From positions 139,120-203,119 of the forward strand of contig CAZAMC010000003.1 of the NCBI GenBank assembly GCA_964486505.1: a stretch of 64,000 bases of DNA, read 5' to 3'. The first letter of the stretch is position 1. Each line of letters begins with the position of its first letter. Position numbers and translations under genes: made by a program. This document shows, in pieces, positions 14,337-45,153 of this stretch. The stretch is from an uncultured Gammaproteobacteria bacterium. GTDB lineage: Bacteria; Patescibacteriota; Patescibacteriia; PEXW01. Under the pieces are notes generated by a model. It searched no databases and was not told the origin of the DNA. It saw only the letters and a program-made list of their open reading frames with translations.

Positions 14337-14660
14337 TTACAACGTTTTCTTCAGTTCCTCCATGATGGCTTGCTTCGTCTGTAATCCCGCAACCCGCCAC
14401 ACTGGCTTCCCGCCCTTGAAAATCGCCAAAGTCGGGATGCTCATGATTGCGTGGGCTTGGGCAGTGACCGGATTTTCATCTACATCAAGCTTGCAGACCT
14501 TGGCCTTATCGCCAATCTCTTTTGCAATCTCTTCCACAATTGGGCCCTGCACTTTGCACGGGCCACACCAGGTTGCCCAAAAATCTACAAGGACCGGCTT
14601 GGTGGGTTCATCAACTACCTCTTTTTGGAAGTTCTGGTCATTGAGGATCACTTCGGACAT
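14337..14660 (-). CDS. trxA: Thioredoxin
   Basis: 107 aa with the WCGPC active site (DFWATWCGPCK). Confidence 0.9.
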   Translation of the reverse strand: MSEVILNDQNFQKEVVDEPTKPVLVDFWATWCGPCKVQGPIVEEIAKEIGDKAKVCKLDVDENPVTAQAHAIMSIPTLAIFKGGKPVWRVAGLQTKQAIMEELKKTL

Positions 14661-15160: not shown

Positions 15161-15892
15161 ATGAAACGAAAATCTATAAGTCTGTCGGTACTCTCGCTTC
15201 TTGCGATGCTCTTCATTGCTCTACCGCAAGGTAGCTTTGCTGCATCCATAGATTCTGACCAGGATGATGTTAGCAACGCTCGTGATCCATTACCCTACGA
15301 CCACGACAACGATGGCATCGTTGATAGTCGTGATACGGATGATGATGACGATGGCATCCGTGATGCACTGGAGGCACTTACGGTACGTCTCGACCACGAT
15401 AACGATGGCATTAAAGACGTTACTGACACGGACGACGACAACGACGGCGACAAAGACAAGAGTGAGCGCCGAAAGCAGTTTGACCATGACAACGATGGTA
15501 CACGAGACCTACTCGACAGCGATGACGACAACGATGGGACTCGTGACACCAGTGAACGTACGCTCACACGTCGGTATGACCATGACAACGACGGCCTCCG
15601 TGACGATCGCGATGTTGACGATGATGAAGATGGGTTAGAAGACGTAGATGATCTCTACGACTTTGACCATGACAACGACGCAGTGCGTGATGATCGCGAT
15701 ACTGACGACGATGAAGATGGAATCGAAGATTCTGAAGACTCACATGACTGGGACCATGACAATGATGGGACAGTTGATGACGAAGACTCAGATGATGATT
15801 CCGACGGCATTAGTGATACAGAGGAGGAAGACGGAGAAGAGTGGGACTATGATAACGATGGCACAGCTGACGACGAGGAAACCTCTTCCTAA
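15161..15892 (+). CDS. Secreted highly acidic repeat protein (seven DxDNDGxxD calcium-loop-like / thrombospondin-type-3-like repeats)
   Basis: RBS GAGGAGG; signal peptide MKRKSISLSVLSLLAMLFIALPQGSFAAS; then DHDNDG(I/T/L)xD...D(T/S)DDD(N/E)DG repeated 7 times, with about 45% D/E content. The coding DNA here is visibly more AT-rich than its flanks. Confidence 0.7.
   Translation: MKRKSISLSVLSLLAMLFIALPQGSFAASIDSDQDDVSNARDPLPYDHDNDGIVDSRDTDDDDDGIRDALEALTVRLDHDNDGIKDVTDTDDDNDGDKDKSERRKQFDHDNDGTRDLLDSDDDNDGTRDTSERTLTRRYDHDNDGLRDDRDVDDDEDGLEDVDDLYDFDHDNDAVRDDRDTDDDEDGIEDSEDSHDWDHDNDGTVDDEDSDDDSDGISDTEEEDGEEWDYDNDGTADDEETSS
15290..15870 (+). repeat. In-frame tandem DNA repeats (~75-90 nt units) encoding the DHDNDG...DDDxDG modules
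   Basis: Recurring gaccatgacaacgatgg...gatgacgatggcat units visible directly in the sequence. Confidence 0.55.
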
Positions 15893-30908: not shown

Positions 30909-31955
30909 TTAGCCTTTCAAGCTCTCTGGGTTCATCATGTACGCCTTCGCAATGTCTTCAGTTATTTCATTCGCTTCAAAGAGCCGTGTGAGGTCCTGGT
31001 CCATAGTCACCATACCGTCCGACGCCGACGTCTGGAGCACTGTCTTGATTTGCGCAATTTTGTTCTCCCGGATCAGGTTGGAAATTGCTGGTGTATTGAT
31101 GAGAATTTCCCGAGAAGAAATTCGCCCCCCATTCACCCGCGGCAGGAGCTGCTGCGAGATAATGCTTTTCAAGAACAGAGAAAGCTGAATGCGCACCTGG
31201 TCTTGCTGGTAGGGCGGGAAGACGTCGATGATGCGATCAACCGTCTGGGCGGCATTGAACGTGTGCAGGGTGGCGAGCACCAAGTGGCCCGTTTCAGCTA
31301 AGGTGATGGTTGCGGCAATGGTTTCGAGGTCGCGCATTTCCCCAACCATAATCACGTTTGGATCTTGACGGAGCACATGCTTCAAAGCATCCTGGAATGT
31401 CACCATGTCTGTGCCGAGCTGACGTTGCTTGATAATGGACTTCTTTGATTCGTAGAGGAACTCAATGGGATCCTCGAGCGTAATGATGTGCGCCGACCGC
31501 TCGTTGTTAATGAAGTTAATCATGGCGGCGAGCGTGGTTGACTTGCCACACCCCGTTGGCCCGGTAACGAGGATCAAACCCTGCTTCTGCCGCAACATCT
31601 CGTACACCACCTCGGGGAGCATCAAGTCCTCCATCGTGGGGATCTGCTGGGAAATGATACGAGAGACCAGACCAGCGTTATTCCGCTCCCAGTGGCAGTT
31701 CACACGGAAGCGAAAACCACCAGGAATCTCGTACGACATGTCGAGCTCCCGATCGGTGATGAACAGCTGCTTCTGCTTGTCGTTGAGAATGGAGAAGACA
31801 AGTGCCTGCGTATCTTTCGGCGAAAACGGAGGGATGCCTTCCACTTCATTCAGCTCCCCATCAATGCGCAGGATGGGCGGCTTGTTCGCCACGATGTGAA
31901 CGTCCGATGCGCGGCGGTCTACGGCAATCTTGAAAAGGTCGTCAATTTTTATCAT
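30909..31955 (-). CDS. pilT: Type IV pilus retraction ATPase PilT
   Basis: Near full-length similarity to PilT: ASDVHIV...LILVTGPTGCGKSTTLAAMI...ITLEDPIEF...DPNVIMVGEMRDLETI...AETGHLVLATLHT. RBS AGGAGG 7 nt upstream of the ATG at 31955. Confidence 0.9.
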   Translation of the reverse strand: MIKIDDLFKIAVDRRASDVHIVANKPPILRIDGELNEVEGIPPFSPKDTQALVFSILNDKQKQLFITDRELDMSYEIPGGFRFRVNCHWERNNAGLVSRIISQQIPTMEDLMLPEVVYEMLRQKQGLILVTGPTGCGKSTTLAAMINFINNERSAHIITLEDPIEFLYESKKSIIKQRQLGTDMVTFQDALKHVLRQDPNVIMVGEMRDLETIAATITLAETGHLVLATLHTFNAAQTVDRIIDVFPPYQQDQVRIQLSLFLKSIISQQLLPRVNGGRISSREILINTPAISNLIRENKIAQIKTVLQTSASDGMVTMDQDLTRLFEANEITEDIAKAYMMNPESLKG

Positions 31956-32271
31956 ACGCGCAACCTCCTGGGTAAGGCCTACCAACGACGCTTCGGGCGC
32001 CGGGTGAGCAATGACGAAATACCGCGGACAATCCGTCGTCCGAGGCTGGGTGAAGACTTAGCGTAGTACATAGTCTGGCCAAGCATGAGCAAGCTGATTT
32101 GCCCTTGCGGGAATACACTTGGTGCGAGGCGTTTCATAGTGTGGTTTTTCTTTTAGGTTACGAATACAGTGTAGCACTTTTTTCTCATCTCGTCAACGTA
32201 CGCTTGCGAACCTCGGATAAACACGTTAGGGTGCAAAAAACGAAAAACTGCAACTTCGAAAGGTGGTGCAC

Positions 32272-32910
32272 ATGCCTGCGCCTTCAGCTCCAACTCGTTT
32301 GCACCAATTAGCAGCGTCAATCCTGTCGCCGGTGGTTCAGGCTCTCAATGCCGCCCACGTCGAGCCAAATGTGCTAACAGGACTGAGCGTTGGGTTTGCG
32401 ATGCTGGCCGCCTGGGCAATTGCGACGCACGCCTGGTGGTTGGCAATTCTCGCCCTCTTGAGCAATGGCCTCTGCGACATGCTCGATGGTGAGCTCGCGC
32501 GCCGGCAACCCCACCGTGCCGCCTGGCTCGTCCAGCTGGGCGCGTTCCTCGACCCTGCCGTTGATCGCATTGCCGATTCAATCCTCTTCCTCGGCATCAT
32601 TGCCTACCTCGTGCCCTGGGCACCCGAACGGTTCATCCTCATTGTGGTGGGCGCCTGTGCCGCAAACCTCATCTCCAGTTGGTTCCGGGCCAAGATTGAA
32701 TCGCTCAACCGCACGTTCACGGATCGCCGGCCGCTCACCCGCGCGACGTTCCACGTCCAAGTGCTCGCGGCCTGTCTGGGGGAACGGTATATTCCGGGCG
32801 CGTTCATGTGGGTTATGGCCTTCACCTGCGCCTCAACGTACTGGACCTTTGCCAGCCGCTTCCGGCACGCCATTGCCCTGTTCCACAAGCACACCCCGCC
32901 CTTTCCGTAG
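32272..32910 (+). CDS. CDP-alcohol phosphatidyltransferase family protein
   Basis: DMLDGELARR...GAFLDPAVDRIAD motif in a multi-TM protein; RBS AAAGGTGG 5 nt upstream of the ATG at 32272 (the track start at 32263 is a GTG inside the RBS). Confidence 0.7.
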   Translation: MPAPSAPTRLHQLAASILSPVVQALNAAHVEPNVLTGLSVGFAMLAAWAIATHAWWLAILALLSNGLCDMLDGELARRQPHRAAWLVQLGAFLDPAVDRIADSILFLGIIAYLVPWAPERFILIVVGACAANLISSWFRAKIESLNRTFTDRRPLTRATFHVQVLAACLGERYIPGAFMWVMAFTCASTYWTFASRFRHAIALFHKHTPPFP

Positions 32911-32953
32911 ACGCCCCACCTCACAGTGCTGGGCGTCTTGCTATACTAGGACT

Positions 32954-33208
32954 ATGGCAAAACTCCAACGCAAAGTTACGCTGCAGATCATTACGCTGCT
33001 CACCGGTGCGCTTGGCATGGTGGCGGCGCTCGCCTGGAATGAAGCGGTGAAAGCCCTGTTTGAAAAAATCTTCGGCGACGCCAGCAGCCTGGTCGCGAAG
33101 TTTACGTACGCGGTGGTGATTACCGCTATCGTCGTGTGGGTCACCACCCACTTGGCGAAGCTGCAGGATCAGTCGGACGAGGAGAAGAACCAGGACCGCA
33201 AGCCCTGA
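32954..33208 (+). CDS. Small two-TM membrane protein (84 aa), leaderless transcript
   Basis: Extended -10 TGcTATACT (32939-32947) then 6 nt then ATG; only the last 85 codons of the long track ORF 32465..33208 are protein-like. Confidence 0.5.
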   Translation: MAKLQRKVTLQIITLLTGALGMVAALAWNEAVKALFEKIFGDASSLVAKFTYAVVITAIVVWVTTHLAKLQDQSDEEKNQDRKP

Positions 33209-33630
33209 CGCGCTTCGGCCGCTGTCCACACCAAGACTGCCACCGCGAGGATCACAGCCTGCGAGGCGAGGCAGACAATGCAGTAGGCCTGCAGGTCAAA
33301 AGCCTCTACGCCCGTGAGGAAGAGCGCAAACCCGAGGGCGCCGGCACTTGCCAGGGCCATTGCACCCCACGTAAGGGCGCGGAGTTTTTGCGTGATCATC
33401 AACCACACACTCCCCAGAGCAAGCAGCGCATAGCCAACTATGCCGATGAGCGCCACCGGCACGCCGGCAATCTGGCTGGCCCAGCTCTTGTTCACCACGT
33501 CGCAGTTGAAGGTGTCGTTGATATTGCAGAACGTGGATGGGCCCACGGTGTAGTGCAATTTCAACGCATAGGCCGACACGGCAATGCCAACAAGTGACAG
33601 GATGAGGATGGCGATGAGTTTGCGGCGCAT
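33169..33630 (-). CDS. Vitamin K epoxide reductase (VKOR) family protein
   Basis: Four TM helices, a loop Cys pair (CNINDTFNC) and CIVC in the last TM, matching VKOR. Start chosen at MRRKLIAILIL. Confidence 0.6.
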   Translation of the reverse strand: MRRKLIAILILSLVGIAVSAYALKLHYTVGPSTFCNINDTFNCDVVNKSWASQIAGVPVALIGIVGYALLALGSVWLMITQKLRALTWGAMALASAGALGFALFLTGVEAFDLQAYCIVCLASQAVILAVAVLVWTAAEARQGLRSWFFSSSD

Positions 33631-33719
33631 GGTCTGTAGGCTACCAGGTTGACGCGCCCTCGTCGAGGCGGTACCGTAGGCGCACAAACCCATAAATGCC
33701 CTTTGAGAAAGGAGGCTCC

Positions 33720-34922
33720 ATGTACGGAGTCCGCATTGCTGGATTGGGCACGGCCGTGCCTAACTGGCGCATTACAAACGCAATGATCGCGCAGCTCCTC
33801 CAGGATGAACGCGAACGCCTGCGGGTGTTGAAGGTTAAGGTTCCAGCCGATCAAGAAAAAGAGTTCGAGACGAATGATGAGTGGATCCAGTCGCGAACGG
33901 GCATTCGCCAACGCTACTTTTGCCCGCGGGATAACTCCGTGGCGACCAGTGACCTTGCCGTCGAAGCCGCTGGCAATGCCTGGACCGATGCTTACGGCGA
34001 AGCGCTGGATACCTTCCCCGAATTCATCATCATTGCCACGGTGAGTCCGGACCACTTCACCACCCCGCCGACCTCGGTCATAGTGCACCGGAAGTTGGGC
34101 GTGCCGAAAACCCAGGGTGGGCACGTGTGGCCCTGTGTCCTGGCTGACATCACGCTTGCGTGCACGAGCTTCATGGTGGCCTTGCAATACGGCTGCATGC
34201 TCATCGAAACCGGGCGGTGCCAGCGGGGCTTGGTCATTGGCGCGGACCGCATGAGTACCACGATGAGCTGGCAGCGGCGATCCCCCTTCGTCATCCTCGG
34301 TGACGGTGCAGGCGCGCTCGTCCTTGAGCGCACAACTGCGGAGGGATCCTTCATCCAGCCTAACCACTGGATTGTGGCCGGTGATGGTGGCAAGGACGGA
34401 GAAATGGAAAACCTCATTAAGAACTGGGCGGGCGGCTCAGCCCAACCGCTGCAGCCGGAGCACCTTCGTCCGCTCGTCGAAGCGCACCTCATGGCTATGG
34501 ACGGCAACCCCGTCTTCCAGACTGTGGGTCCGCTGGTTACGAAGACGGTCATCCCGGCAATTCTCGAACGCATTGAGCTCACGCTGGAAGACATCGACGT
34601 GCTCGTCCTCCACCAAGCCAACCAGCGGATTACCGACTTCGTGGCGAAGGGCTTACAGAAGTCCAATCCGAAAACGGACATCCGCATCGCCACGCTGGAC
34701 AATCCCGACGGCACATCGGTAGCCCCGAAACCGAACGGCGGGCACATCGTCCGGATATTCTGCAACATCGAACGGTACGGGAACATGACCTCCGCCAGTG
34801 TCCCGACCGCCCTCGCCGAAGCACGGGATGCTGGCGTTATTCAGCCGGGATCGAAAGTGATAATTTCGGCTTTCGGCGGCGGCTTGAGCTGGGCCGCAGC
34901 ATTCGCTACCTGGAGGGAGTAA
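33720..34922 (+). CDS. 3-oxoacyl-ACP synthase III (FabH-like KAS III) with N-terminal insertion
   Basis: RBS AAAGGAGG; EWIQSRTGIRQRY, the active-site Cys in LACTSF, HQANQRI, GNMTSASVP and FGGGLSW; a ~25-aa insertion after the first beta-strand relative to canonical FabH. Confidence 0.8.
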   Translation: MYGVRIAGLGTAVPNWRITNAMIAQLLQDERERLRVLKVKVPADQEKEFETNDEWIQSRTGIRQRYFCPRDNSVATSDLAVEAAGNAWTDAYGEALDTFPEFIIIATVSPDHFTTPPTSVIVHRKLGVPKTQGGHVWPCVLADITLACTSFMVALQYGCMLIETGRCQRGLVIGADRMSTTMSWQRRSPFVILGDGAGALVLERTTAEGSFIQPNHWIVAGDGGKDGEMENLIKNWAGGSAQPLQPEHLRPLVEAHLMAMDGNPVFQTVGPLVTKTVIPAILERIELTLEDIDVLVLHQANQRITDFVAKGLQKSNPKTDIRIATLDNPDGTSVAPKPNGGHIVRIFCNIERYGNMTSASVPTALAEARDAGVIQPGSKVIISAFGGGLSWAAAFATWRE

Positions 34923-35061
34923 GCACTTTGTATGAAACGCACCGTACGCCACCGGTGTGTTTTTCAATACGGCGGAAACAAAACCTGCATTGACAATGGG
35001 GACGGTTGTTGGTAATACACCTTCACCAAGAAATCAAAAACCCTTTGACAAGGAGGAATGC

Positions 35062-35979
35062 TTGAACGGTTTCAAAGCGGTGCTCAAGAGAGCCCAGGAG
35101 ATTGAGGCGGCGCGCTACGTACCAGTTCCAACGCAGACGTCGGTGGTGCTCCCCATCGTGGGCGCAGTCCGCATCACCGAAGAAAAGCTCGGTGGCGACG
35201 CGCGCTGGAGGGCGACAAATCCAGAGCAGGAAATATTCCTGCGGGACTACTACGGGTCAACGATTTCGCTGCTGGCAAGGGTGCCGGAGCTCGTATCGAG
35301 TGCCGAGGTACTCAAGGCTGCTGACCGGTATGAAGTGCGGGCGAAGAGCGTGCTGGATGTCACCGTCGAGTGGCCCGAGCTGGGTGATCAGACGGACATT
35401 GAGCACGCAATTACCAAGCAGCGCTTCGCGGGTGTTCGCATGAAGAGTGCGTACGTGACCTTCTTCCGCACTGCGGACCACCCGTACCCCGTAGCCTGTG
35501 TGAAGACGAAAACTGGTGACACTGTGTATATGGCTATGTGCCCAGAAGCACGGGGCCTGAAAGATCGGGAACTCGACCGGCTCATTGCCAAGTGCTTCTC
35601 CAGTGCCCAGCTTCGCCCCACATTTCGTGAATTCGGTGGCCTGCGCTTCCCCATGGTCAAGCACGAGCGCCTAGAGAACATCACCTGGCTCGTGGGCATG
35701 CGCGGCCAGGATGCCGAAGAGTGGCCCGCGGAAATCGTGGAGGCAACGCAGGAGACGAAGCTCCGTATGAACTGCAAAGGAGCACGCGTGCGCTCCGAGG
35801 TGCGACTCCGCACAGTGGTGTTACTCAGCGCCGGTCCCATGGACATGCCCCCGCCTGACCACACCATCGACCTCCCGTTCCTCATCTGGTTCACCCGACC
35901 GTCGCTCCCGGTCCCGTACGCCATTGCGCTCATTGGCGAAGCTGACTGGCGCGACCCCGGTGACCTCGAAAACATCTAG
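35062..35979 (+). CDS. Hypothetical protein (~305 aa)
   Basis: Frame is open from 34957; the preferred start is TTG at 35062 (AAGGAGG then 5 nt) downstream of a TTGACA-17-TAATAC promoter at 34990-35018. Alternative ATG starts are at 34957 and 34996. No recognised family. Confidence 0.5.
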   Translation: MNGFKAVLKRAQEIEAARYVPVPTQTSVVLPIVGAVRITEEKLGGDARWRATNPEQEIFLRDYYGSTISLLARVPELVSSAEVLKAADRYEVRAKSVLDVTVEWPELGDQTDIEHAITKQRFAGVRMKSAYVTFFRTADHPYPVACVKTKTGDTVYMAMCPEARGLKDRELDRLIAKCFSSAQLRPTFREFGGLRFPMVKHERLENITWLVGMRGQDAEEWPAEIVEATQETKLRMNCKGARVRSEVRLRTVVLLSAGPMDMPPPDHTIDLPFLIWFTRPSLPVPYAIALIGEADWRDPGDLENI

Positions 35980-35988
35980 CTCACTTGC

Positions 35989-36020
35989 AAAAGCCATCCA
36001 CGGTATCGTGGATGGCTTTT
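35989..36020. terminator. Bidirectional terminator between convergent genes
   Basis: AAAAGCCATCCACGgtatCGTGGATGGCTTTT. Confidence 0.55.
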
Positions 36021-36041
36021 CCTTACAATCGATATGTTGAA

Positions 36042-36959
36042 CTAGCCCGCTGACATGGCCAGAAACTTCTCTGCATCCAGCAGCGCCATCACACCGAAAC
36101 CCGCGGCTACCGAAGCCTGCCGGTAGCGGGGATCGTGCACGTCGCCGGCGGCAAAAACCCCCTCCACGTTTGTCTTGGTGAAGTCCTTCACCACAATGAA
36201 GCCGTGGCTATCAACCTCGAGCTGGTCTTTAAAAATATCAGTTGCGGGTTTGTGGCCAATGGCGAGGAACAGCCCTTGGCAAGCGTAGTCCCGCACCTCA
36301 CCCGTCTGCGCATCCTTCAGCTTCACCCCAGCTACCGCTTGCTCACCAAGCACATCAACAACCTCACTTTTCCACTGCACGGAAATTTTCGGATTTGCAA
36401 GAACACGATCCTGCATAATCTTGCTGGCGTTGAATGAATCTTTCCGATGGACAATTGTCACTTTTGTAGCAAACTTTGTAAGAAAATTTGCTTCTTCCAT
36501 TGCCGTGTCGCCGCCACCGACGATTACGACTTCCTTGCCCTTGAAGAAGAATCCGTCACACGTGGCGCACGCCGATACGCCAGCGCCCCGCAGGCGCTGC
36601 TCATTGGGTAAACCCAGCCACTTCGCCTGCGCGCCCGTGGCGACAATGACGGTCTGCGCTTGTAGCGCTTGATCACCCACCCACAGCCGAAAAGGCCGTT
36701 GGGAAAAATCGACCTTTGTAACGTTCCCATCAATGAACTGCGTACCAAAATGCGCCGCTTGATCGCGCAGCTTCTGCATGAGCTCTGGCCCCTTGATGCT
36801 CACGTAACCGGGGAAATTTTCTACGTCTGTCGTATCCATGAGCTGGCCGCCCGGCTTCATACCAGCAATGACTAGGGGCTGGAGCTCGGCCCGGGCACCG
36901 TAAATTGCCGCCGATAAACCCGCCGGACCAGAACCAATGATAATGAGTTTATGAGCCAT
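36042..36959 (-). CDS. trxB: Thioredoxin reductase (canonical, NADPH-dependent)
   Basis: IIIGSGPAGL...GVSACATCDGFFFKGKEVVIVGGGDTAMEEANFLTKFATKVTIVHRKD: the CATC redox motif and HRKD NADPH motif are both present. Start chosen at MAHKLIIIG. Confidence 0.9.
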   Translation of the reverse strand: MAHKLIIIGSGPAGLSAAIYGARAELQPLVIAGMKPGGQLMDTTDVENFPGYVSIKGPELMQKLRDQAAHFGTQFIDGNVTKVDFSQRPFRLWVGDQALQAQTVIVATGAQAKWLGLPNEQRLRGAGVSACATCDGFFFKGKEVVIVGGGDTAMEEANFLTKFATKVTIVHRKDSFNASKIMQDRVLANPKISVQWKSEVVDVLGEQAVAGVKLKDAQTGEVRDYACQGLFLAIGHKPATDIFKDQLEVDSHGFIVVKDFTKTNVEGVFAAGDVHDPRYRQASVAAGFGVMALLDAEKFLAMSAG

Positions 36960-37110: not shown

Positions 37111-39231
37111 TTATTGCTCCTCCCAGCTCAACGTCTCGTACTGCCCCGTGGTGGGGAAATCAGGCGGCGGGGCGTAACTCAAGTTCGCATCGAAGATAAG
37201 GTCACGCAAGCAGTACCCCGAATTGTTATACTGGCCACCCCCACAATCAAACAGATTGTAGCCGGTCCAGGCAAAACCGTACCGTTGGTTCGTTGCAATC
37301 GCTCCAAAGTTCGTTAGCTGGGCGCGCTTGCGGTACTCCTGGCACGTTGTCCCGCCATCTGGATTTTGGCTCTGCGTGCAGGTGTCGGTGGTCACGCAGG
37401 TATCACCGGACGTACAGGGCCCCGTACTCGTCGTCACGCAGGTGTCGGTGGTCACGCACGGCCCAACGTCAGGCGCGCTCGAATCACACGTCCCAAAACC
37501 GGTACAGTGCGAATTCTGGGAGCACCCCCGATTATGGTCACCGGTACACCAACCGTTGCACCGCGCGTTCGTCGTGCACGAACGAGTTGGATCATTCTGG
37601 CAGTAGTTGCGGCAGTTGGTGTTCGTCGTGCACGCGCGCGTGGGAAACGCGTTGCAGTAGTTAATGCAGTCCCCGGTGACCGTGCAGGCGCGGTCGGTGT
37701 CCGTGCTGCACTTGTTGTTGCACTGAGCGTCGGCCGTGCAGTTGAGCGTGGGCGTGGCTTGGCAGTAGTTTGTACAGTCGCCATTCACGGCACAGGATCG
37801 TGCGGGGTTGCCCACGCAAATGCCGCCGGTGGGGTAGAGTTGGAAGTTCGCATTGTTCGTCGAGGTCGTGAAGCCTGCCCCGTAGTACGGTCGGCCCACC
37901 CGCCCGTTCTGAGCAATGAGGGCGGCGTCAATGCGAATGTCATTCTCGCTAAAGTACCCAACGAGAATGTTGTCCTGCGCGATGAGCCCAATAACGTCGC
38001 CACCGCTCGTATCGCCAACCGGCGTATACGTGAGGTCCTCGTTCAAGTAGATGTTTGCGCGGCCCGATGCAAGCGGCTCACGAGCGGCCACGATAGTGAG
38101 CCGAGAATTATCAACAGCCCCGTCAACCCAGAGATCGTCTTCCACGAAGATAATGCCATTTGCGGGCAGGTCTACGCCCAGGGAAGAGCCGCCGTTGTAG
38201 GTAAAGGCCGCCTGGTCATTCGCCCGGGTGCCCACGGAGTGTGACGACTGCACGCAGGTTGCCCCCGACGAACACTGGCTACTCTGTGTACAGCTGGTGT
38301 TGAAATCATTTGAACAGTACCCAAAGTCACGCCACGTCCCGCTGGCGTTGTACTGGCAGCGTAGCTGCGCATTCACCACGCGCATGTCAACCTTGCCATC
38401 GGTACGGAGCGTGAGGTGGTACCCTTGCCCACCGGATGGGAGCAGACGTATGCCGCTGGCAATAGCTTTGGTCTGCAACGCCTGCAAGTCCGCGGTGATA
38501 TTGGCGAAATCTACGTAGTCAGCCTGTACCTGCCGGCCCGCTTCAAAAACGTCGGGGCGGCTAGCAATTGTGGCCGGCGGCGCGGCGGGTGGAATGGGGT
38601 CGGTGGGGGCTATGTGTGTATGTACGCCCAGCTCGTTGCTGCCGGTGTGGTCAGGATCGTCGTAGCTATACCGGTACGACGTGACGAGATTATGTGCCAA
38701 ACCGTCAAACCGGATGCCGCCATTGCTGTGTATAGGACCAAATACTTCGGTACCGACGCCGAAGCGCATATCGGCATTCGCCACGACCGCCCACTTGGTG
38801 AATGAGGGGATCCCTTGCCGCACAACCACGGTGCGTGCGCTCGCCGGCCGATTGGTGAGCTGTCCAGTGGAGGTAATGGTTACAACCGTTGACCCCGAAG
38901 GGGGTGGCGCGATATCCAGGGTAAACGTGCCAATCACATTCCCGGTGGTGTCACGGTACTGGTGCACGTAGGGTCCCGTCGTACCCGTGCCATCTTGGAA
39001 ATCATCGGGCACGTGGGCAAGGTGCCACCGGTAGTACTCTACGCCTGCTTCGGCAATCTGAAATGCGCGCTCGCGTTCTACCCGAAATTTACTCGCCGCG
39101 TTCTGGGTGATGATGAACTGGAGGGCCAGCATACCGAGTGTGACGAAAAGTCCGGTGATAACCAGAATGCTCACGAGCATCGAGCCGGAGGACTGATTCG
39201 TTCGCGGTGAATTGGCGCGCGCACGACTCAT
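37111..39231 (-). CDS. Large prepilin-like protein (GspK/minor-pilin-like N-terminus lacking Glu+5) with Cys-rich tandem repeats
   Basis: N-terminus ...QSSGSMLVSILVITGLFVTLGMLALQ is a class-III-signal-like hydrophobic segment. C-terminal region holds 7-8 repeats of C-x5-C-x3-C (...CTNYCQATPTLNCTADAQCNNKCSTDTDRACTVTGDCINYC...). 706 aa; last gene of a three-gene operon. Confidence 0.6.
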   Translation of the reverse strand: MSRARANSPRTNQSSGSMLVSILVITGLFVTLGMLALQFIITQNAASKFRVERERAFQIAEAGVEYYRWHLAHVPDDFQDGTGTTGPYVHQYRDTTGNVIGTFTLDIAPPPSGSTVVTITSTGQLTNRPASARTVVVRQGIPSFTKWAVVANADMRFGVGTEVFGPIHSNGGIRFDGLAHNLVTSYRYSYDDPDHTGSNELGVHTHIAPTDPIPPAAPPATIASRPDVFEAGRQVQADYVDFANITADLQALQTKAIASGIRLLPSGGQGYHLTLRTDGKVDMRVVNAQLRCQYNASGTWRDFGYCSNDFNTSCTQSSQCSSGATCVQSSHSVGTRANDQAAFTYNGGSSLGVDLPANGIIFVEDDLWVDGAVDNSRLTIVAAREPLASGRANIYLNEDLTYTPVGDTSGGDVIGLIAQDNILVGYFSENDIRIDAALIAQNGRVGRPYYGAGFTTSTNNANFQLYPTGGICVGNPARSCAVNGDCTNYCQATPTLNCTADAQCNNKCSTDTDRACTVTGDCINYCNAFPTRACTTNTNCRNYCQNDPTRSCTTNARCNGWCTGDHNRGCSQNSHCTGFGTCDSSAPDVGPCVTTDTCVTTSTGPCTSGDTCVTTDTCTQSQNPDGGTTCQEYRKRAQLTNFGAIATNQRYGFAWTGYNLFDCGGGQYNNSGYCLRDLIFDANLSYAPPPDFPTTGQYETLSWEEQ
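37366..37700. repeat. Direct DNA repeats encoding the Cys-rich modules
   Basis: cacgcaggtgtcggtggtcacgca occurs twice (about 37375 and 37436), with many related copies (gtcaccaccgacacctgcgtgac family). Confidence 0.5.
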
Positions 39232-39830
39232 AGGTTGTCTTTGAGGTTACGGAAGGCCACGCTGGTTTGCAAATCAATAGCGGCCGGGGTTTGGCTGGGG
39301 TCGGCATCAATACTGAGCAGGACGGTGACTAACCGAACGTCCTGCAGAGTTACTGGGAAGGTGAGCGCGGCTTCCGATCCGGTGTATGACGTATCGAAGT
39401 ACTGGAAGATGGGTGCCGCGCCATTGCGCACGCCAGTTACCAACGTGCTCACCGCTTCGCTACCCGCTGGGTACGACGCCGGTTGGCCAACGGGCTGGAT
39501 GAAGCCGAGCTTCAAATCAGAACCCTGGAGAAAGAAGCGAACCTGCTCCCGATCCGCATCTGCATCTGCATTCGCGTAGAAAGTTAATGACTGCGCGGCC
39601 GCCGCAGCAATGGGGTAGCTCCCGTTATTCGAGGGCTGCGCTTCCCGCACAAGCCGTGTAATGCGCGCCAAAGCCGTCCGGGCTTGCTCCTGCGCGTCAA
39701 CTTGCTCTCGATTCTGGTTCCACGTCCGCAAACCAAAAGCCGCAAAGGTGCCTAGCATCGTTGCCACAATTGCAAAGATGCTCGCGGTCACAATGACTTC
39801 AACTAGAGTGAATCCTGAGGGGCGATGCAT
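39228..39830 (-). CDS. Type IV pilin-like / pseudopilin (GspJ/PilV-like minor pilin)
   Basis: Prepilin-peptidase motif MHRPSG|FTLVEVIVTASIFAIVA (G-F-T-L-V-E with Glu at +5); 200 aa; 4-nt overlap with the upstream gene. Confidence 0.75.
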   Translation of the reverse strand: MHRPSGFTLVEVIVTASIFAIVATMLGTFAAFGLRTWNQNREQVDAQEQARTALARITRLVREAQPSNNGSYPIAAAAAQSLTFYANADADADREQVRFFLQGSDLKLGFIQPVGQPASYPAGSEAVSTLVTGVRNGAAPIFQYFDTSYTGSEAALTFPVTLQDVRLVTVLLSIDADPSQTPAAIDLQTSVAFRNLKDNL

Positions 39831-39833
39831 AGC

Positions 39834-41996
39834 TTAGGCCGGAACGAGTGAGAAGGTGTTCTGAACATGACCGCTCACATCCACATCAACCGTCAGAGGG
39901 GTGTAGCCGTCTTTCGTCAACGTCACGCTATAGGTTTGCGCCGAAAGACTGGGGAAGAATGCTTGGCCCGGGGGGGTGCACCCCGTGGTAAATCCAATAC
40001 GCACATCAGTAATACCGGGCGTCACCTTCTGGTCTGCCGTCTGCAAGAAGAGCTTGTACCGGATATAGCGCTTCGACTGAATACTGGCTGGCAATGCATC
40101 ACCGCTTGTGGTGAAGTACGTAGCGTTCGTGCCATCTGGCCCCACGAAATTCCACGTTGCATTATCGTCATTCGTTGCGAGCTGGAAACGGGCCGCCTCA
40201 GACCCTGCCTCGGCGGTCTGGCTTTGCGGTTCCCACGTGAGCCCAAAGAACGTGCTCGCCGTACCCGTGTCATAGGACGACGACGTGAGCGTCCCGTTGC
40301 TGGCGTACGTCTCTATAGTCAAGTCAATGGAGACATCCTGCACGACGGGCGTCACATTGGGGTCGGCGGTTTCGAGTTCAATACGGAAGCGCAGGACGTC
40401 ACCCGCCGAAACAAAGGCATGGGTCACATCGGGGGTAACTTCTTCAAACGTCGTGCCATCGGCCGACAGGTAGTAGCGAATAACCTGGCCATTCTCATTC
40501 CGCGCCGAACTCAGCGTGGCATCCACAATCTTCCCGGCGGGTGTGGGGATCTGCAAAGTCTGGGCTATCGCGCTAGCATCGTATAGCCCCGCGGTCTGAG
40601 ACAGGCGGAGCTCGCCCGCCCCGGTATCCCAGGTCGCCGTCGTAGAAGGATCACGGTTGGTAGTGGTATCAAAACTTTCGGATACCGCATCGGCACTCGA
40701 TGACTTCGTGAGCGTTACCTGGCCCGGCGTAGAGGTGACGTCAATTCCGCCGGTCTCGCTGTCGTACTTCGTCGCGTCTGTAAAATCTGCTTGGCCACTC
40801 CCGCCCGACCAGTTGGTTTGTGCCCATGTGCCCTGGCCGGTTGTCTTCGTCCCTACCCCGCTTACGTCAACGGTCGCCCCCGAGATGGGTGCGCCCGTGT
40901 TGGCATCCTTCACGCTCGCCAAAAGGGAGTTGGCCGAGTAGCTGGTCGTGAGGACCAAGGTAACTTGCGCATTCGTATCCGGCAGCACGTTCAAGCTCGC
41001 GGGCGGGATTATGCCAGCAATATTTCGCGTCAGCCCACCGAGCGTCAGGGCGTAGTTATCCCAAACCAAGCTACTCGCGGTCGCTTGGCCGCTACCATTG
41101 GTGGTGAAGCTCTGATCATACGCCAGCACCGGCGAGGGCGGTGGGTTGCCTTTCAACCGTTGGCCGCTGAGCTGGAAGTCAACTCCGGATTGCACTGCGC
41201 ACGTCTCGTTCACGGTGGTGAACGCCAAGCTGCTCAGGTGATCGATAGCAAAAGTGATGTCGAGCACGCCGCCGGCGGTAATCGAAAGGTTCGGGCGCAC
41301 GGGGTTGGGGAGTGCTACGGAAACTGCAAAGGTTTGATCTGTCGTGAATCCCGCTTTTGTTACGCGAACATTGTAGTTGTCTACGTCAGGCAGCAGGCTC
41401 AACAGTTGTAGCTTGCCGTTCACGTCCGTCTTCGAAGAAATGTCGACATCCGGATCCAGATTAGTATTCGTCACGTACACGTCTGCTTCCGAGACAGGCA
41501 GCCCCGACGCATCAATAACCGAAACCAGGAGCGAACCGGTATTCGATGGCGACTCCAGGCCCGCCGGCATAATAGATGTAGTGAGTTTAACCGCCTCGTC
41601 GCCTCCTGCCCACGTAACAGACACCTCGACCAGCTTGTAGTCCGTGGGCACCGTATCGGGTGGCGTGTCGGTGACCAGCTTATCGAACGTATCATCTACC
41701 CACTTCACACACGTATCCACCGTGAAGGTGACGTTGGAACGGACGGCGGTCATGGAGCGGGCGAATGGTCCGGTCACTTCGCACGTTGGCGCTTGCGTCC
41801 CGACGTCGCTAAACGGCGCATTGCGGAGCACCTCAATGCGCTCATTGGCTAGTGCGGTTGCGAGGACGCGAACCTTAGAACGGGCCAACTTCTCGGCGCT
41901 TAAGCTAAACATCCCTAACGCAAATGTCACCACGAGGCCAATAATTGCGACCCCAATGAGTGTCTCCACAAGTGTCGTGCCCTTCCTCCGTAGCAT
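39834..41996 (-). CDS. Giant prepilin-like protein (720 aa) with Ig-like/carboxypeptidase-regulatory-like extracellular domains
   Basis: N-terminus MLRRKG|TTLVETLIGVAIIGLVV is a type IV pilin class III signal with Glu+5, followed by a long S/T/V/D-rich beta domain. Confidence 0.7.
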   Translation of the reverse strand: MLRRKGTTLVETLIGVAIIGLVVTFALGMFSLSAEKLARSKVRVLATALANERIEVLRNAPFSDVGTQAPTCEVTGPFARSMTAVRSNVTFTVDTCVKWVDDTFDKLVTDTPPDTVPTDYKLVEVSVTWAGGDEAVKLTTSIMPAGLESPSNTGSLLVSVIDASGLPVSEADVYVTNTNLDPDVDISSKTDVNGKLQLLSLLPDVDNYNVRVTKAGFTTDQTFAVSVALPNPVRPNLSITAGGVLDITFAIDHLSSLAFTTVNETCAVQSGVDFQLSGQRLKGNPPPSPVLAYDQSFTTNGSGQATASSLVWDNYALTLGGLTRNIAGIIPPASLNVLPDTNAQVTLVLTTSYSANSLLASVKDANTGAPISGATVDVSGVGTKTTGQGTWAQTNWSGGSGQADFTDATKYDSETGGIDVTSTPGQVTLTKSSSADAVSESFDTTTNRDPSTTATWDTGAGELRLSQTAGLYDASAIAQTLQIPTPAGKIVDATLSSARNENGQVIRYYLSADGTTFEEVTPDVTHAFVSAGDVLRFRIELETADPNVTPVVQDVSIDLTIETYASNGTLTSSSYDTGTASTFFGLTWEPQSQTAEAGSEAARFQLATNDDNATWNFVGPDGTNATYFTTSGDALPASIQSKRYIRYKLFLQTADQKVTPGITDVRIGFTTGCTPPGQAFFPSLSAQTYSVTLTKDGYTPLTVDVDVSGHVQNTFSLVPA

Positions 41997-42069
41997 AGGT
42001 AGTAGTATAGCGTACTTCCACGGAGGGCAGTGCTATACTAAGGGGCGACTCGCTCTAACCCAAAGGCTT

Positions 42070-45000
42070 ATGACCCGTCGACACTACCTGAAGTTCACGA
42101 GTGGACTTCTCCTATTCACTGTGCTCTGGTCATTCCCGGGAATGATGAGCCCAGCGCGGGCTGTGACCAACGTCGTTGCTGGCACCGTTACTACCAGCGC
42201 CGGGGCGCCCATGGCGGGTGTCACCATGGAGCTGCACACGCCGGACGGTGTTTTCACGACAAATACCACGACCGCGGCGGATGGTACGTATCACTTTGAC
42301 AACGACCTTACGGTGGGTACGAACTACGTGGTGGAACCGCGGACGCCCGCAGGCTACAACCGCGTAAATACCAGCGCGAACAACAATAACTTTACCTACG
42401 ATGGGGTTTCTCGCTCAGGGGTGAACTTCCAGTTTGTTGCCACGAGCAAAACCATCAGCGGCCGCGTGACGGACACGAACGGCGTTGCCATTACCGATGC
42501 CGACATTAACATCACGCCCTACAACAACCCCAATGCCAGTAACGCCGCCGCCCGAACCGACGGCACCGGCGCCTACTCGGCCACGGTCGTGGGCGGCACG
42601 TGGTTTGCCCAGCCTGTGGTCAACCTCTCCGAATACACACAGCGCTGGATTAGCGAGACGCCTCCACAGCGCATCGACTTTGCGAACGACGCTACTGCCG
42701 AAACGGCAACCCTCAACTTCCAGGTAACCCCCGCCACTGGGAAGGTAACCGTAACCTTGCTCAACAGCGACGGGAGCAAGCTCACGACGAGCAACTTCGT
42801 AGCCGACATTAACTTCCGCCGGGCCGATGGCGTAGGCACCATGCGCAAAGTGCAAGCGGCCACCTCCACTGTGAGCGTGTACCTCACCCCGGGCATCTAC
42901 ACCATCTCGGCGTTCCACAACGATCTTCGCGGTAAGTCATTCGATCCCGCCGCAACGACCTTTGTAATGACAGAGAACGGGAACGTAGACCTCGGGACAG
43001 TGCAAGCCCAAGTCGATAGCGCCCACCTGACAGGCAAGGTGACGAATACCAGTGGCCAAGCCCTACCGAATGTGCACATCCAGGCCATCCGCGAAGGCGG
43101 ACAGGAGCGGCCGAGTGGGAATACTGACCCGAATGGAAACTTTGATCTCACGGTTGGTGCAGGCACCTGGGTGATTGGCCTGGATACGAACGATACCTCG
43201 CACACCCTGGTTGCTCCAGTGAGCGCAACGGTGACGAACGGGCAAACCACGACGGGCCTCAATTTGCAGGTCAAGGACCTCGACCGAACGGTTTCCGGAC
43301 GGGTGCTGAACGCGAACGGCGCGGTGGTCACTGACTTCGTGGGCAGCGTGTACGTCCGAACACTATCGAACAGCGCCCGGGTGAGCGCCCCGGTCGTTGA
43401 TGGCACGTTTAGTGTAAAGTTCGCATCCAAAGAGATAACGGGCAGCAAAATTGTCGTTGGAACCCAAGCCGCCCCCGGCACGGCCTATGCGGGCGGCAAT
43501 GAAAAGCAGGTAACGTCGGGAAATACTGTGGCTACCGATCTTACCCTCCGAGCATACGATGCCACGCTCACGGGTACACTCCGCTTGCCGGATGCCACGG
43601 TAGTCACCAATGCGGGTTCGGACCTACAGGTCGTGGCTGTAGATGCCAGCGGTAACTTTGCCAGCACCACAGTTGGGGCTGATGGCTCGTACTCTCTGCC
43701 CCTTGCCGCCGGCACTTGGCTCTTCGACTACGACATTGAAGACCCTGAGGATACCAGTGGGTTGCTCAACCGCCCCTCGGGCCAGAGCAGCGTCACCATC
43801 AAGGCCGGCCAAACGCTCACGCGCAATCTCACGGTTCGGCTCGGCACGAATACCATCACCGGCACAGTGCGCGACTCCAGTGGTGCTGCCGTTGGGAGCG
43901 TAAAAGTGACCATCGACAACCGCCCCTCGCTGGAGAGCAATGCGGCCACAAATCCAAACGACATTGTCACGCAGACCGTGGAGACGGATGTGAACGGCGT
44001 GTACACCACAAAAGTCCCGAATGGTACGTACCTCATCACTGTGGGCGAGACCCCAGCAGTTGCCGACACCCAGATCCAACCCGATGGCAAGGCGGTAAAA
44101 GTGAGCGGCGGCTCAACCACGACCGTGAACCTCACCTTTGAGGCAAGCAACGCCGTAGTGAAAGGCAAGGTCCTCCTCAACGGCAAGGGCGAGGGTGGCG
44201 GTACCATTACCGCGTACTCCGCCGATGGCGCGCAGGCAACGGCCACCGTGAACAGCTCGGGCAACTACACCCTGAACCTAAACAAGAACGAGAAGTGGAC
44301 CCTGGTCGCCACTGACCTCAAGGGTCAGCGCTTGGTGGCAAGCGACGCTGCCGAAATTACGCCGAAAGCAAACACGACGACCAAGAACCTCACGGTAAAA
44401 GACACGGGACTTGCTGTTCCCGGCCCGGTCACCAAGACCGGCAACGCCGATGATAGCGTGAGCGTGAGCCTGGCCGATGGCACGAACGTCACGGTTCCGC
44501 CCTTCGCCCTCGATATTTCGGGCACTGTGGAAGTAACCGTTACCCCCACCATCGATATTGACCCCACGACGCTGGATCGCCCGGCTTCTCTCGCCTATGA
44601 AGTAAGCGCATTCGATGCAACAGGCCGCGAGGTGAAAGCGCTCAACACTCCGGCGACGATAACCTTGCCGTACAAAGAGAGCACGGTGGTGAATAACGGG
44701 TTGCGGGAGAAGGCGCTGGCGACCAAGTACTGGGACTCGCAAACCGAATCCTGGTCCACCGATGGCGCCGCCGGACTTGTGAATACCACCAAGAACACGG
44801 CGACACTCACTACGACTCACCTTTCAAAATTCTCGGTTACCGGCACGGCCCGGGCGACACCAAAACTGACGGCGAGCAAGTTGGTGAGCCGCAATAGCAC
44901 CAGCCTGGTCATCGAAGTAAGCGGCAGCAACATGAAGGGCAAAGCCACAGCAAAACTTGGCACGGTGAAAGCCACAAAAGTAGAGGTGCGCAGTAGCAGC

Positions 45001-45153
45001 GTTGCCCGCCTCACCTTCCCGACCAAGTCGGTGAAGAACGGCACGTACGACCTCACCTACACCAATGCCGATGGCCGCTCGACAATCAAACGGACTACGG
45101 TAAGTACCGGCCGCGTGCTTGGCGAGAGCGTGGCGCGGATTATTCCCCGATAA
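42070..45153 (+). CDS. Large secreted multi-domain protein (repeated CarboxypepD_reg/Cna-B-like Ig-fold modules, C-terminal IPT-like domain)
   Basis: Start chosen at MTRRHYLKFTSGLLLFTVLWSFPGMMSPARA (signal peptide). Recurring ...G.V.D..G.....A.V........TDA.G.Y.....G.Y modules; 1027 aa; divergent from the pilin-like operon. Confidence 0.7.
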   Translation: MTRRHYLKFTSGLLLFTVLWSFPGMMSPARAVTNVVAGTVTTSAGAPMAGVTMELHTPDGVFTTNTTTAADGTYHFDNDLTVGTNYVVEPRTPAGYNRVNTSANNNNFTYDGVSRSGVNFQFVATSKTISGRVTDTNGVAITDADINITPYNNPNASNAAARTDGTGAYSATVVGGTWFAQPVVNLSEYTQRWISETPPQRIDFANDATAETATLNFQVTPATGKVTVTLLNSDGSKLTTSNFVADINFRRADGVGTMRKVQAATSTVSVYLTPGIYTISAFHNDLRGKSFDPAATTFVMTENGNVDLGTVQAQVDSAHLTGKVTNTSGQALPNVHIQAIREGGQERPSGNTDPNGNFDLTVGAGTWVIGLDTNDTSHTLVAPVSATVTNGQTTTGLNLQVKDLDRTVSGRVLNANGAVVTDFVGSVYVRTLSNSARVSAPVVDGTFSVKFASKEITGSKIVVGTQAAPGTAYAGGNEKQVTSGNTVATDLTLRAYDATLTGTLRLPDATVVTNAGSDLQVVAVDASGNFASTTVGADGSYSLPLAAGTWLFDYDIEDPEDTSGLLNRPSGQSSVTIKAGQTLTRNLTVRLGTNTITGTVRDSSGAAVGSVKVTIDNRPSLESNAATNPNDIVTQTVETDVNGVYTTKVPNGTYLITVGETPAVADTQIQPDGKAVKVSGGSTTTVNLTFEASNAVVKGKVLLNGKGEGGGTITAYSADGAQATATVNSSGNYTLNLNKNEKWTLVATDLKGQRLVASDAAEITPKANTTTKNLTVKDTGLAVPGPVTKTGNADDSVSVSLADGTNVTVPPFALDISGTVEVTVTPTIDIDPTTLDRPASLAYEVSAFDATGREVKALNTPATITLPYKESTVVNNGLREKALATKYWDSQTESWSTDGAAGLVNTTKNTATLTTTHLSKFSVTGTARATPKLTASKLVSRNSTSLVIEVSGSNMKGKATAKLGTVKATKVEVRSSSVARLTFPTKSVKNGTYDLTYTNADGRSTIKRTTVSTGRVLGESVARIIPR

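Follow-up and report, generated by a model that had tools for sequence, protein, structure and literature searches.

A FabH-like condensing enzyme as exchangeable cargo between the VKOR and thioredoxin reductase genes of a Patescibacteria-type locus

Introduction

Why would a bacterium from a lineage that is believed to lack fatty acid synthesis keep a condensing enzyme of the FabH type, and keep it alone? This question is raised by a 64-kb stretch of DNA (hereafter the window) from a 217-kb contig (CAZAMC010000003.1 of assembly GCA_964486505.1) of a genome of probably about 1 Mb. In this window, a stand-alone β-ketoacyl-acyl carrier protein (ACP) synthase III (KAS III) is encoded between a thiol oxidoreductase of the VKOR family and a thioredoxin-disulfide reductase (TrxR). 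A preliminary description had combined KAS III with four neighbors, namely a CDP-alcohol phosphatidyltransferase, a small protein with two transmembrane (2-TM) segments, VKOR and a 305-aa protein, into a membrane- or lipid-type cluster. All five open reading frames (ORFs) could be confirmed where they had been placed, and four of them have significant family matches in Pfam and NCBIfam scans. As a unit, the cluster did not hold: the five genes are neighbors by insertion history and form neither a pathway nor a conserved functional unit, and KAS III itself turned out to be dispensable and exchanged as a cassette among related genomes, being neither a core gene nor a decaying one.

The sequences point to the candidate phyla radiation (CPR), or Patescibacteria, as the source. 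The identical and nearest KAS III proteins belong to metagenome-assembled genomes (MAGs) named 'Patescibacteria group bacterium', a relative with the same gene order (L012; the loci fetched for comparison are numbered L001-L036) is a 'Candidatus Kerfeldbacteria' MAG, and the remainder of the window is CPR-like: it is poor in biosynthetic genes and encodes giant surface proteins, PilT and pilin-like proteins, and glycolytic enzymes. According to published work, CPR bacteria have no known complete pathways for lipids or fatty acids and reuse lipids from other organisms, and they often use the mevalonate pathway (PMC7242380, PMC4736985, PMC12455944). They are considered incapable of making fatty acids of their own and dependent on the lipids of their hosts. 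A condensing enzyme that is both selected and swappable is unexpected in such organisms, and we found no paper on FabH or KAS III in CPR/Patescibacteria. A FabH-type enzyme that is under selection but has no visible partners from type II fatty acid synthesis (FAS II) points to some acyl-chain chemistry in CPR cells, and the behavior of KAS III as exchangeable cargo suggests that this chemistry varies between strains. Since the gene is short and its structural model is of high confidence, the enzyme should be easy to express and assay, so that the question is directly testable.

A conserved backbone with a variable slot

The window shares with about 16 related loci a backbone that consists of PilT, DUF5654, VKOR, a slot, TrxR and pilus-associated giant proteins. 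Its left anchor is a PilT-type retraction ATPase (30909..31985, minus strand; PF00437, E 1e-44), followed by DUF5654, the small 2-TM protein (32957..33208, plus strand; PF18898, E 5e-19), and by the 153-aa VKOR (33169..33630, minus strand; PF07884, E 1e-23, 84.4 bits against a cut-off of 27.5). TrxR (36042..36959, minus strand; TIGR01292, 394.6 bits against a cut-off of 343) bounds the slot on the right and is syntenic in all related loci. In tblastn comparisons, the gene order reads RNase Y, YmdB, HU, PilT, DUF5654, VKOR, KAS III and TrxR, and continues beyond TrxR with a 706-aa Cys-rich protein, a pilin-like protein and a 720-aa protein; this order is present in L001/L010, L009/L015, L012, L014, L018/L019 and L020. 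Identity across the syntenic loci amounts to 88-98% for PilT, 60-86% for VKOR, 66-90% for TrxR and 60-90% for the 706-aa protein, and to 27-86% for KAS III.

The history of KAS III is not that of its flanks. By its flanks, L014 is the closest relative of the window (RNase Y 97%, PilT 95%, TrxR 90%, VKOR 83% identical), but its KAS III is just 45% identical. Likewise, the 706-aa protein and VKOR of L018 are 90% and 80% identical to those of the window and its KAS III only 32%, whereas L014 and L009 show the opposite pattern, with 86% identity in KAS III and 73-77% in the flanks. Depending on the locus, the slot is empty or is filled with other genes or with one of four deeply diverged KAS III types (A-D, with type A in the window); between these types, identity is 27-50% as compared with 60-98% for the flanks. 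The breakpoints are sharp. DNA homology to L014 is interrupted at 33750-36065, which covers KAS III and the 305-aa gene, and at 32183-32937, which covers the phosphatidyltransferase gene; homology to L018 is missing within the slot over 33684-34927, corresponding to the KAS III ORF, and returns in the following intergenic region, the 305-aa gene and TrxR. The 89-bp divergent intergenic region between VKOR and KAS III (33631..33719), which bears the KAS III ribosome binding site (RBS), was kept despite the exchange of the KAS III body, as blastn homology with L014 and L009 extends to 33750/33763, while that with L018 stops at 33684, inside this region.

A census of the slot was obtained from a metagenome scan anchored on the VKOR of this lineage, a pattern-based procedure that may miss divergent members. 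Types A, B and C were recovered again, and one locus (L033) was rearranged. In L032, the slot contains no KAS III and the stop codon of TrxR overlaps with the start codon of VKOR (ATGA; L032:3039-4444), and in L036 it is occupied by a D-Ala-D-Ala ligase (Ddl), a Nudix-like protein and three hypothetical proteins, all encoded on the opposite strand. In six other genomes with a KAS III of this clade (L003, L004/L017, L011, L013, L016), VKOR, DUF5654 and TrxR are not adjacent to it. Three of these non-syntenic genomes encode a small homologous protein immediately 5' of KAS III on the same strand (L003:9533-9877, L011:1622-2128, L016:6863-7204), which may represent a recurring partner; in L003 it belongs to PF04020 (Phage_holin_4_2).

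Variable-cargo slots flanked by core genes are known from defense islands, O-antigen and capsule loci, and integration hot spots. With such genomic islets, the slot shares the fixed flanks (VKOR and TrxR), the divergent or non-orthologous cargo, the empty state and the sharp breakpoints at gene boundaries, but in contrast to them, most of its cargo comes from a single enzyme family, KAS III, of which several allelic types occur. The slot borders showed no integrase, tRNA or repeats, and the cargo gave no match to PADLOC defense models. As the GC content of the inserted genes, overall and at third codon positions (GC3), is not anomalous, a recent foreign origin is not supported by composition.

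Among the matches listed from a search of 5.8 billion proteins, the KAS III of the window belongs to a long-form clade of 17 clusters (398-421 aa, 43-100% identity), below which identity falls sharply, to about 35% for ordinary FabHs. Among 185,579 species-representative genomes, 8 loci with a member of the clade were found, a count to be read as a lower bound, and the IMG/VR viral contigs yielded none. In a neighbor-joining tree the long-form clade is monophyletic, the syntenic types A, B and C are interleaved with sequences from non-syntenic genomes, and the gene tree is incongruent with the flanks. KAS III does not show the pattern of a core gene, with a single conserved orthologue in each genome and a phylogeny that follows that of the species. 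The type D protein of L018 falls outside the long-form clade, among shorter forms that bear only insertion A (the insertions are described below). This protein (L018:8472-9860; 462 aa) lies in the same slot, shares only about 30% identity with the others, and differs from them by an N-terminal insertion of about 70 aa, by another internal insertion and by the absence of a Trp32 equivalent; its Cys-His-Asn triad is intact. Within types, dN/dS is 0.088 (window versus L027) and 0.11 (L014 versus L009), values that reflect strong purifying selection on each allelic type. Low dN/dS, divergent types and slots that are empty or refilled together describe a gene that is selected and yet replaceable.

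A FabH fold with four insertions

KAS III is encoded at 33720..34922 on the plus strand. The longest ORF opens at 33696, but the RBS GAAAGGAGG (33708-33716) precedes the ATG at 33720, and the public gene call (P0001) likewise gives a protein of 400 aa. Both Pfam domains of the family, ACP_syn_III (PF08545, E 2e-20) and ACP_syn_III_C (PF08541, E 4e-25), are present. Both NCBIfam cut-offs for FabH are missed, narrowly for PRK09352 (244.5 bits against 249) and clearly for TIGR00747 (202 against 292.1), largely because the insertions split the match into two stretches. The best sequence matches in the PDB are FabHs (E 7e-40 and weaker), with identities of about 27-31% to E. coli FabH and of up to 39% to other FabHs. 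An AlphaFold2 (AF2) model of high confidence was obtained (predicted local distance difference test, pLDDT, 96.1; predicted template modeling score, pTM, 0.94), and the 30 top structures retrieved with it by Foldseek are nearly all FabHs, with E. coli FabH (9ka6/6x7r) as best match (TM 0.92-0.93, target-normalized).

The catalytic Cys/His/Asn that the preliminary description had noted are Cys148, His298 and Asn355. Together with the GGG loop (G386-G388), they are invariant in alignments of 24 and 40 sequences that include E. coli FabH. W55, R187 and R303 are also invariant and R59 nearly so in alignments that include canonical FabHs. W55, R59 and R187 are the counterparts of the E. coli CoA contacts Trp32, Arg36 and Arg151, of which Trp32 and Arg151 clamp the CoA adenine, and R303 corresponds to Arg249, the key ACP-docking residue. 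In contrast, the equivalents of Lys214 and Lys257 are not conserved in the clade. Across 17 clade members, 58 columns are invariant, all catalytic residues included. The residue aligned to E. coli Phe87 is a Thr, as it is in M. tuberculosis FabH, but this match is a tentative hint since an alignment gap adjoins it. Phe87 caps the acyl pocket in E. coli FabH, and the M. tuberculosis enzyme is one that accepts long chains.

The N-terminal insertion, previously put at about 25 aa, is real and comprises about 23 aa, but three further ones had been overlooked, and all four are specific to the clade in the alignment and modeled at pLDDT >90. Insertion A (residues ~24-46; 33789..33857, plus strand) is evident from both alignment and model; it follows the first strand, lengthens the N-terminal helix and contributes another one (modeled as helices 20-36 and 43-49) beside the segment with the Trp32 and Arg36 equivalents that contacts CoA. 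Insertion B, about 8 aa, lies just ahead of the catalytic Cys, and insertion C comprises 4 aa. Insertion D, about 27 aa (residues ~316-342; 34665..34745, plus strand) and likewise seen in alignment and model, is placed before the Asn loop and forms a β-hairpin (strands 319-324 and 342-347) right behind the helix with the ACP-docking Arg and Lys. As A and D both flank the CoA/ACP entrance, they most plausibly alter the recognition of partner or substrate.

The protein can be compared with several known enzymes. With E. coli FabH (1hn9, 6x7r, 9ka6) it shares the fold, the triad, the GGG oxyanion loop, the Trp32/Arg151 clamp and the equivalents of Arg36 and Arg249, and it differs by about 80 extra residues in four insertions, by the lack of conservation at the Lys214 and Lys257 equivalents, by its lack of linkage to plsX-fabD-fabG-acpP-fabF and by its accessory, horizontally exchanged nature. 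Housekeeping FabH, in contrast, is a core gene. The fold is also shared with PqsD (3h77), BioZ (6kue/9w96), V. cholerae FabH2 (4x0o) and M. tuberculosis FabH (1hzp), at target-normalized TM scores of 0.80-0.91, almost as high as those for FabH. These four, like DarB/StlD, OleA and NphT7, are stand-alone or pathway-specific condensing enzymes that use unusual primers. However, the sequence match to PqsD (E 6e-25) is much weaker than that to FabH (E 7e-40), the scores for DarB (32.7 bits against a cut-off of 550), StlD/DarB (32.1 against 450) and HMG-CoA synthase (48 against 244) are far too low, and the insertions are, judged from alignment lengths, not shared by any of these relatives. No partner genes of the specialized KAS III families were found in the KAS III neighborhood. 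Going by these scores, KAS III lies outside the DarB, PqsD, OleA and HMG-CoA synthase families, and sequence comparison identifies it as a Patescibacteria-restricted, insertion-bearing, cassette-like form that is clearly derived from FabH.

Fatty acid synthesis genes in the window and related loci

A housekeeping FabH would be expected in the company of other FAS II genes at least somewhere. With E. coli PlsX, FabD, FabG, AcpP, FabF, FabZ, FabI, AccA, AccB and AccC (NC_000913.3) as tblastn queries, nothing was found at E<=0.01 in the window and L001-L020 (about 370 kb), which include 13 other loci with a KAS III of the clade, whereas the E. coli FabH query matched every KAS III in the same sequences. 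Even at E<=10, the ACPs of B. subtilis and E. coli gave no credible match in the window and the fetched loci; a match in L016 (E 0.064) was discarded as it runs antisense to a membrane-protein gene. Also the called neighbors of the KAS III homologues contain none of the Pfam families of fab genes or ACP. KAS III is apparently unlinked to FAS II in the window and the loci examined, which bears out the earlier view of it as a stand-alone enzyme.

The neighbors of KAS III

The second CDP-alcohol phosphatidyltransferase of the window (32263/32272..32910, plus strand; PF01066, E 3e-13, 50.8 bits against a cut-off of 22) has an intact D-x2-DG-x2-AR...G-x3-D-x3-D motif, as read from its sequence. Its best PDB matches are phosphatidylinositol phosphate (PIP) synthases (6h53, 5d92, 6wm5; E 6e-5), and its NCBIfam scores are 83.7 bits for archaetidylinositol phosphate (AIP) synthase (cut-off 180) and 63.3 for PIP synthase (cut-off 170). 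It can be classified as a PIP/AIP-synthase-like member of the CDP-alcohol superfamily, its scores being far below both subfamily cut-offs. Thirteen homologues were found, all at most 48% identical except for the window's own record, and they occupy unrelated housekeeping contexts. According to tblastn synteny, no related locus holds a transferase between PilT and DUF5654, and DNA homology to L014, L018, L009, L020 and L001 ends at 32183-32199 and restarts at 32936-32938, exactly bracketing the gene. The transferase is an insertion specific to the window lineage. The first CDP-alcohol transferase of the window, at 5212..5796, is also real and PgsA-like. About 0.6 kb away from it, a stand-alone CoA-binding domain protein of 137 aa (4182..4595, minus strand) is encoded, which resembles the N-terminus of the alpha subunit of ADP-forming acetate-CoA ligase.

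The VKOR assignment of the preliminary description holds, with the gene on the minus strand. Its ORF extends to 33693, yet the homologues are 153 aa long and begin at the second Met, so that this is the likely start. The protein has the four-helix core, the loop Cys pair and the CXXC motif of the family, and Cys35, Cys43 and C117-x-x-C120 are invariant. VKOR shares its strand with TrxR, and KAS III is opposite to both. The ATGA overlap in L032, where the slot is without KAS III, indicates a translationally coupled TrxR-VKOR operon. Both appear to constitute a thiol-redox unit that belongs together and with the pilus genes. In CPR, VKOR often adjoins an MdbA-like disulfide oxidoreductase, a family that the authors of that study connect with pilin folding, and it has been associated there with the formation of disulfides in pilins (PMC6744442). 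A link of VKOR to KAS III or to quinone or lipid chemistry, as had been suggested, finds no support, as VKOR forms an operon with TrxR once the slot is without cargo. In other bacteria, VKOR uses quinones, and quinone synthesis is, to our knowledge, typically absent from CPR. The coupling of a cytoplasmic NADPH reductase to a membrane VKOR in L032 poses the question of the direction of electron flow, and the lack of quinone synthesis in CPR sharpens it. A further TrxR paralogue (13359..14327, minus strand) adjoins a thioredoxin gene (14337..14660, minus strand), bringing the window to two TrxR paralogues and one thioredoxin; this paralogue is below the TrxR cut-off, and its AhpF match is strong (272 bits) but also below cut-off. 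In every syntenic genome, the 3' ends of DUF5654 and VKOR overlap convergently by 40-43 nt (40 nt in the window, 33169..33208; L001:9448-9487, L009:9446-9488, L018:7917-7956; also in L020).

The 305-aa protein (35062..35979, plus strand), predicted to be cytoplasmic, follows KAS III after a terminator-like hairpin with a T-run (34944..34960, plus strand) 3' of the KAS III stop. It had been described as a conserved-looking protein with its own promoter and RBS. The RBS is there, as AAGGAGG at 35049-35055, 6 nt ahead of the TTG start at 35062, but the scan called no sigma-70-type promoter and only a TTGACA is visible at 34990. Given the succession of hairpin, TTGACA, AAGGAGG and TTG start, the gene is probably its own transcription unit. 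As to conservation, there are only three close homologues (80-100%) and a more distant one, P0124 (34%), which matches the C-terminal end of Pfam Serpin, but the protein does belong to a remote family. A profile search of 1.84 billion representatives retrieved at least 1317 clusters at 50% identity, 901 of them at E<=1e-10 and mostly of 280-310 aa. Ten family members were looked up, and those that have a source name are called 'hypothetical protein'; one of these stems from the MAG of a Candidatus Parcubacteria member. This ~290-aa family has no model in Pfam, NCBIfam or PADLOC, and the window protein itself reaches no Pfam or NCBIfam threshold.

The relationship of this family to serpins is confined to its C-terminal part. 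Pfam Serpin (PF00079) is matched by 41 of 58 sampled members, though only at profile positions ~300-370 of ~370; the family profile retrieves PAI-1 (E 8e-7) and dozens of further serpins from the PDB; and hhalign aligns family columns 185-283 with residues 307-413 of alpha-1-antitrypsin (95 columns, E 8e-5, 61% probability). In PAI-1, alpha-1-antitrypsin and many other serpins, the region aligned with the C-terminal ~100 residues comprises s5A, the reactive-centre loop and s1C-s4B-s5B, and the start of the hinge (E-x-G) and a P-F-L-F/W motif are found in the family. Unlike serpins, which have about 380 residues, its members have only about 290-305, and the N-terminal 185 residues are without detectable serpin similarity; the window protein has no signal peptide, and its hinge bears Arg, Glu and Val at positions that are occupied by small residues in inhibitory serpins. 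The AF2 model from a four-sequence alignment is of low confidence (pLDDT 34). The protein can be placed in a large uncurated family whose C-terminal ~100 residues are apparently serpin-like. A scan of IMG/VR for this family was negative, and we found no report on serpins in Patescibacteria.

The 305-aa family had also been proposed as a partner of KAS III. Among the syntenic loci the gene occurs only in L018/L019, beside a different KAS III type, and it is absent beside other type A KAS III genes (L020, L001). As it accompanies two unrelated types and not the other type A genes, there is no evidence for a functional link, and the gene is probably best regarded as accessory cargo that occupies the part of the slot nearer to TrxR. 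A 184-aa gene after KAS III in L001 was considered as a counterpart but is unrelated and weakly DUF218-like.

That the five genes form no conserved unit follows from synteny: the transferase and the 305-aa gene are lineage-specific, and KAS III occurs elsewhere without these neighbors. The transferase is absent at its position in all related loci and the 305-aa gene in most, so the membrane/lipid-type cluster is not supported.

Possible function of KAS III

We think that the locus is probably best explained by a backbone of the Patescibacteria lineage, in which the slot between VKOR and TrxR carries an exchangeable KAS III that feeds a non-essential product. The backbone of PilT, DUF5654, VKOR, TrxR and type-IV-pilus-associated giant proteins would take up cargo on the opposite strand, which in the window would be the stand-alone FabH-derived KAS III and the unrelated serpin-like protein, and the PIP-synthase-like transferase between PilT and DUF5654 would be a third lineage-specific insertion. 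In the reaction that we propose, an acyl-CoA primer would acylate Cys148, and His298 and Asn355 would assist the decarboxylation of a malonyl thioester, so that a Claisen condensation would result in a β-ketoacyl product. This product would be converted to a specialized lipid or a small molecule that varies between strains and might be built on acyl chains obtained by scavenging, and not to bulk fatty acids. A specialized product had already been considered in the preliminary description. It remains favored by the stand-alone and accessory nature of KAS III, its scores below cut-off and its Patescibacteria-restricted clade, but the supports that had been sought in a lipid cluster, in VKOR and in the 305-aa gene as partner have fallen away. 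One may go further and speculate that the slot is a diversity hot spot, in which an ACP-independent KAS III allows episymbiotic, lipid-scavenging cells to elongate or condense acyl-CoAs of the host into a surface lipid or signal molecule, the types A-D are under host-specific or frequency-dependent selection and the insertions at the substrate entrance replace ACP docking; we regard this extension as rather improbable.

Several points weigh against an exchangeable KAS III with a specialized product. The ACP-docking Arg is invariant and the PRK09352 score is only 4.5 bits under the cut-off, both of which would also fit a conventional FabH role. Genes for ACP, FabD and elongation enzymes could lie outside the 64-kb window, and some CPR (Nealsonbacteria) are reported to possess a near-complete FAS II, although without ACP-processing genes (PMC7242380). 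As no source of malonyl-CoA was seen in the window and the loci, the decarboxylative mechanism is uncertain. Clade KAS III genes sit elsewhere in L003, L004, L011, L013, L016 and L017, and genomes whose slot lacks KAS III might have the gene at another place. Furthermore, the pattern- and word-based scans may miss divergent clade members, so that the rarity counts are lower bounds, and dS is saturated in most comparisons, so that relative-rate arguments rest on amino-acid identity.

An ordinary housekeeping FabH that primes FAS II, with the other genes scattered elsewhere in the genome, is an unlikely alternative that nevertheless deserves attention. FabH is the best match in both structure and sequence, the triad, the CoA contacts and the Arg249 equivalent are kept, purifying selection is evident, and a near-complete FAS II is reported for some CPR (PMC7242380). 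This is difficult to reconcile with the slots without KAS III in the close relatives L032 and L036, with the swapping of variants that share only 27-50% identity among genomes with flanks of 80-95% identity, with the incongruence of the gene tree, and with the two missed NCBIfam cut-offs and the rarity of the clade. Nor was any fab, acp or acc gene found in the 64 kb or the 13 other KAS III loci, and CPR are generally without FAS (PMC4736985, PMC7242380). Quite unlikely, in our opinion, is a use outside FAS that needs no ACP or malonyl-ACP, be it an NphT7-like acetoacetyl-CoA synthase for the mevalonate pathway, an OleA-like head-to-head condensation between two scavenged acyl-CoAs or an acyltransferase in lipid remodeling. 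The mevalonate pathway and lipid scavenging are common in CPR (PMC4736985, PMC7242380, PMC12455944), no ACP was seen locally, large insertions flank the entrance for substrate or carrier, and the tentative Thr in place of Phe87, next to an alignment gap, would also fit. However, the Cys-His-Asn triad is that of the decarboxylating condensers, and the extra catalytic Glu typical of OleA was not identified in KAS III. Known O-acyltransferase relatives of KAS III have altered triads. NphT7 chemistry would still require malonyl-CoA, for which no acetyl-CoA carboxylase was found in the window and the loci, and a central enzyme of isoprenoid supply would be neither dispensable nor swappable.

The idea that the five genes serve a single membrane-lipid or quinone pathway draws on their physical adjacency in the window, on the general use of quinones by VKOR and on the KAS III relatives PqsD and DarB, which make quinolone or resorcinol scaffolds. 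This idea is largely refuted by synteny and we hold it to be very improbable: the transferase is found in the window lineage only and its homologues in unrelated contexts, the 305-aa gene is serpin-like and has its own RBS behind a terminator-like hairpin, VKOR is on the strand opposite to KAS III and, where the slot is empty, shares an operon with TrxR, and six other genomes have KAS III with none of these neighbors. The DarB score (33 bits as compared with 550) is also at odds with it. It is scarcely conceivable, finally, that KAS III has no present function and is left over, in decay, from a FAS II that was lost. High divergence between the types, patchy presence and the reductive evolution of CPR might suggest this, but dN/dS values of 0.09-0.11 within types, 58 invariant columns over 17 members, intact ORFs with a strong RBS and a confident fold that includes the insertions argue against it.

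Other features of the window

The pilin-like and giant proteins are encoded at 37111..39231, 39228..39830 and 39834..41996 (all minus strand), 41644..45153 (plus strand) and 2..4057 (minus strand). The pilin-like protein has an N_methyl motif and lies between giant proteins, and the group is probably a pilus or adhesion apparatus. The 706-aa protein contains a long Cys-rich region with C-x3-C-x-N-Y/W-C-like repeats, other giant proteins have repeats of the CarboxypepD_reg type, and one surface-protein ORF of more than 1350 aa passes the window start. A secreted protein of 243 aa (15161..15892, plus strand) consists nearly entirely of Asp-rich 'DHDNDG...D(x)DDD(D/E)DG' repeats, which are calcium-binding-like.

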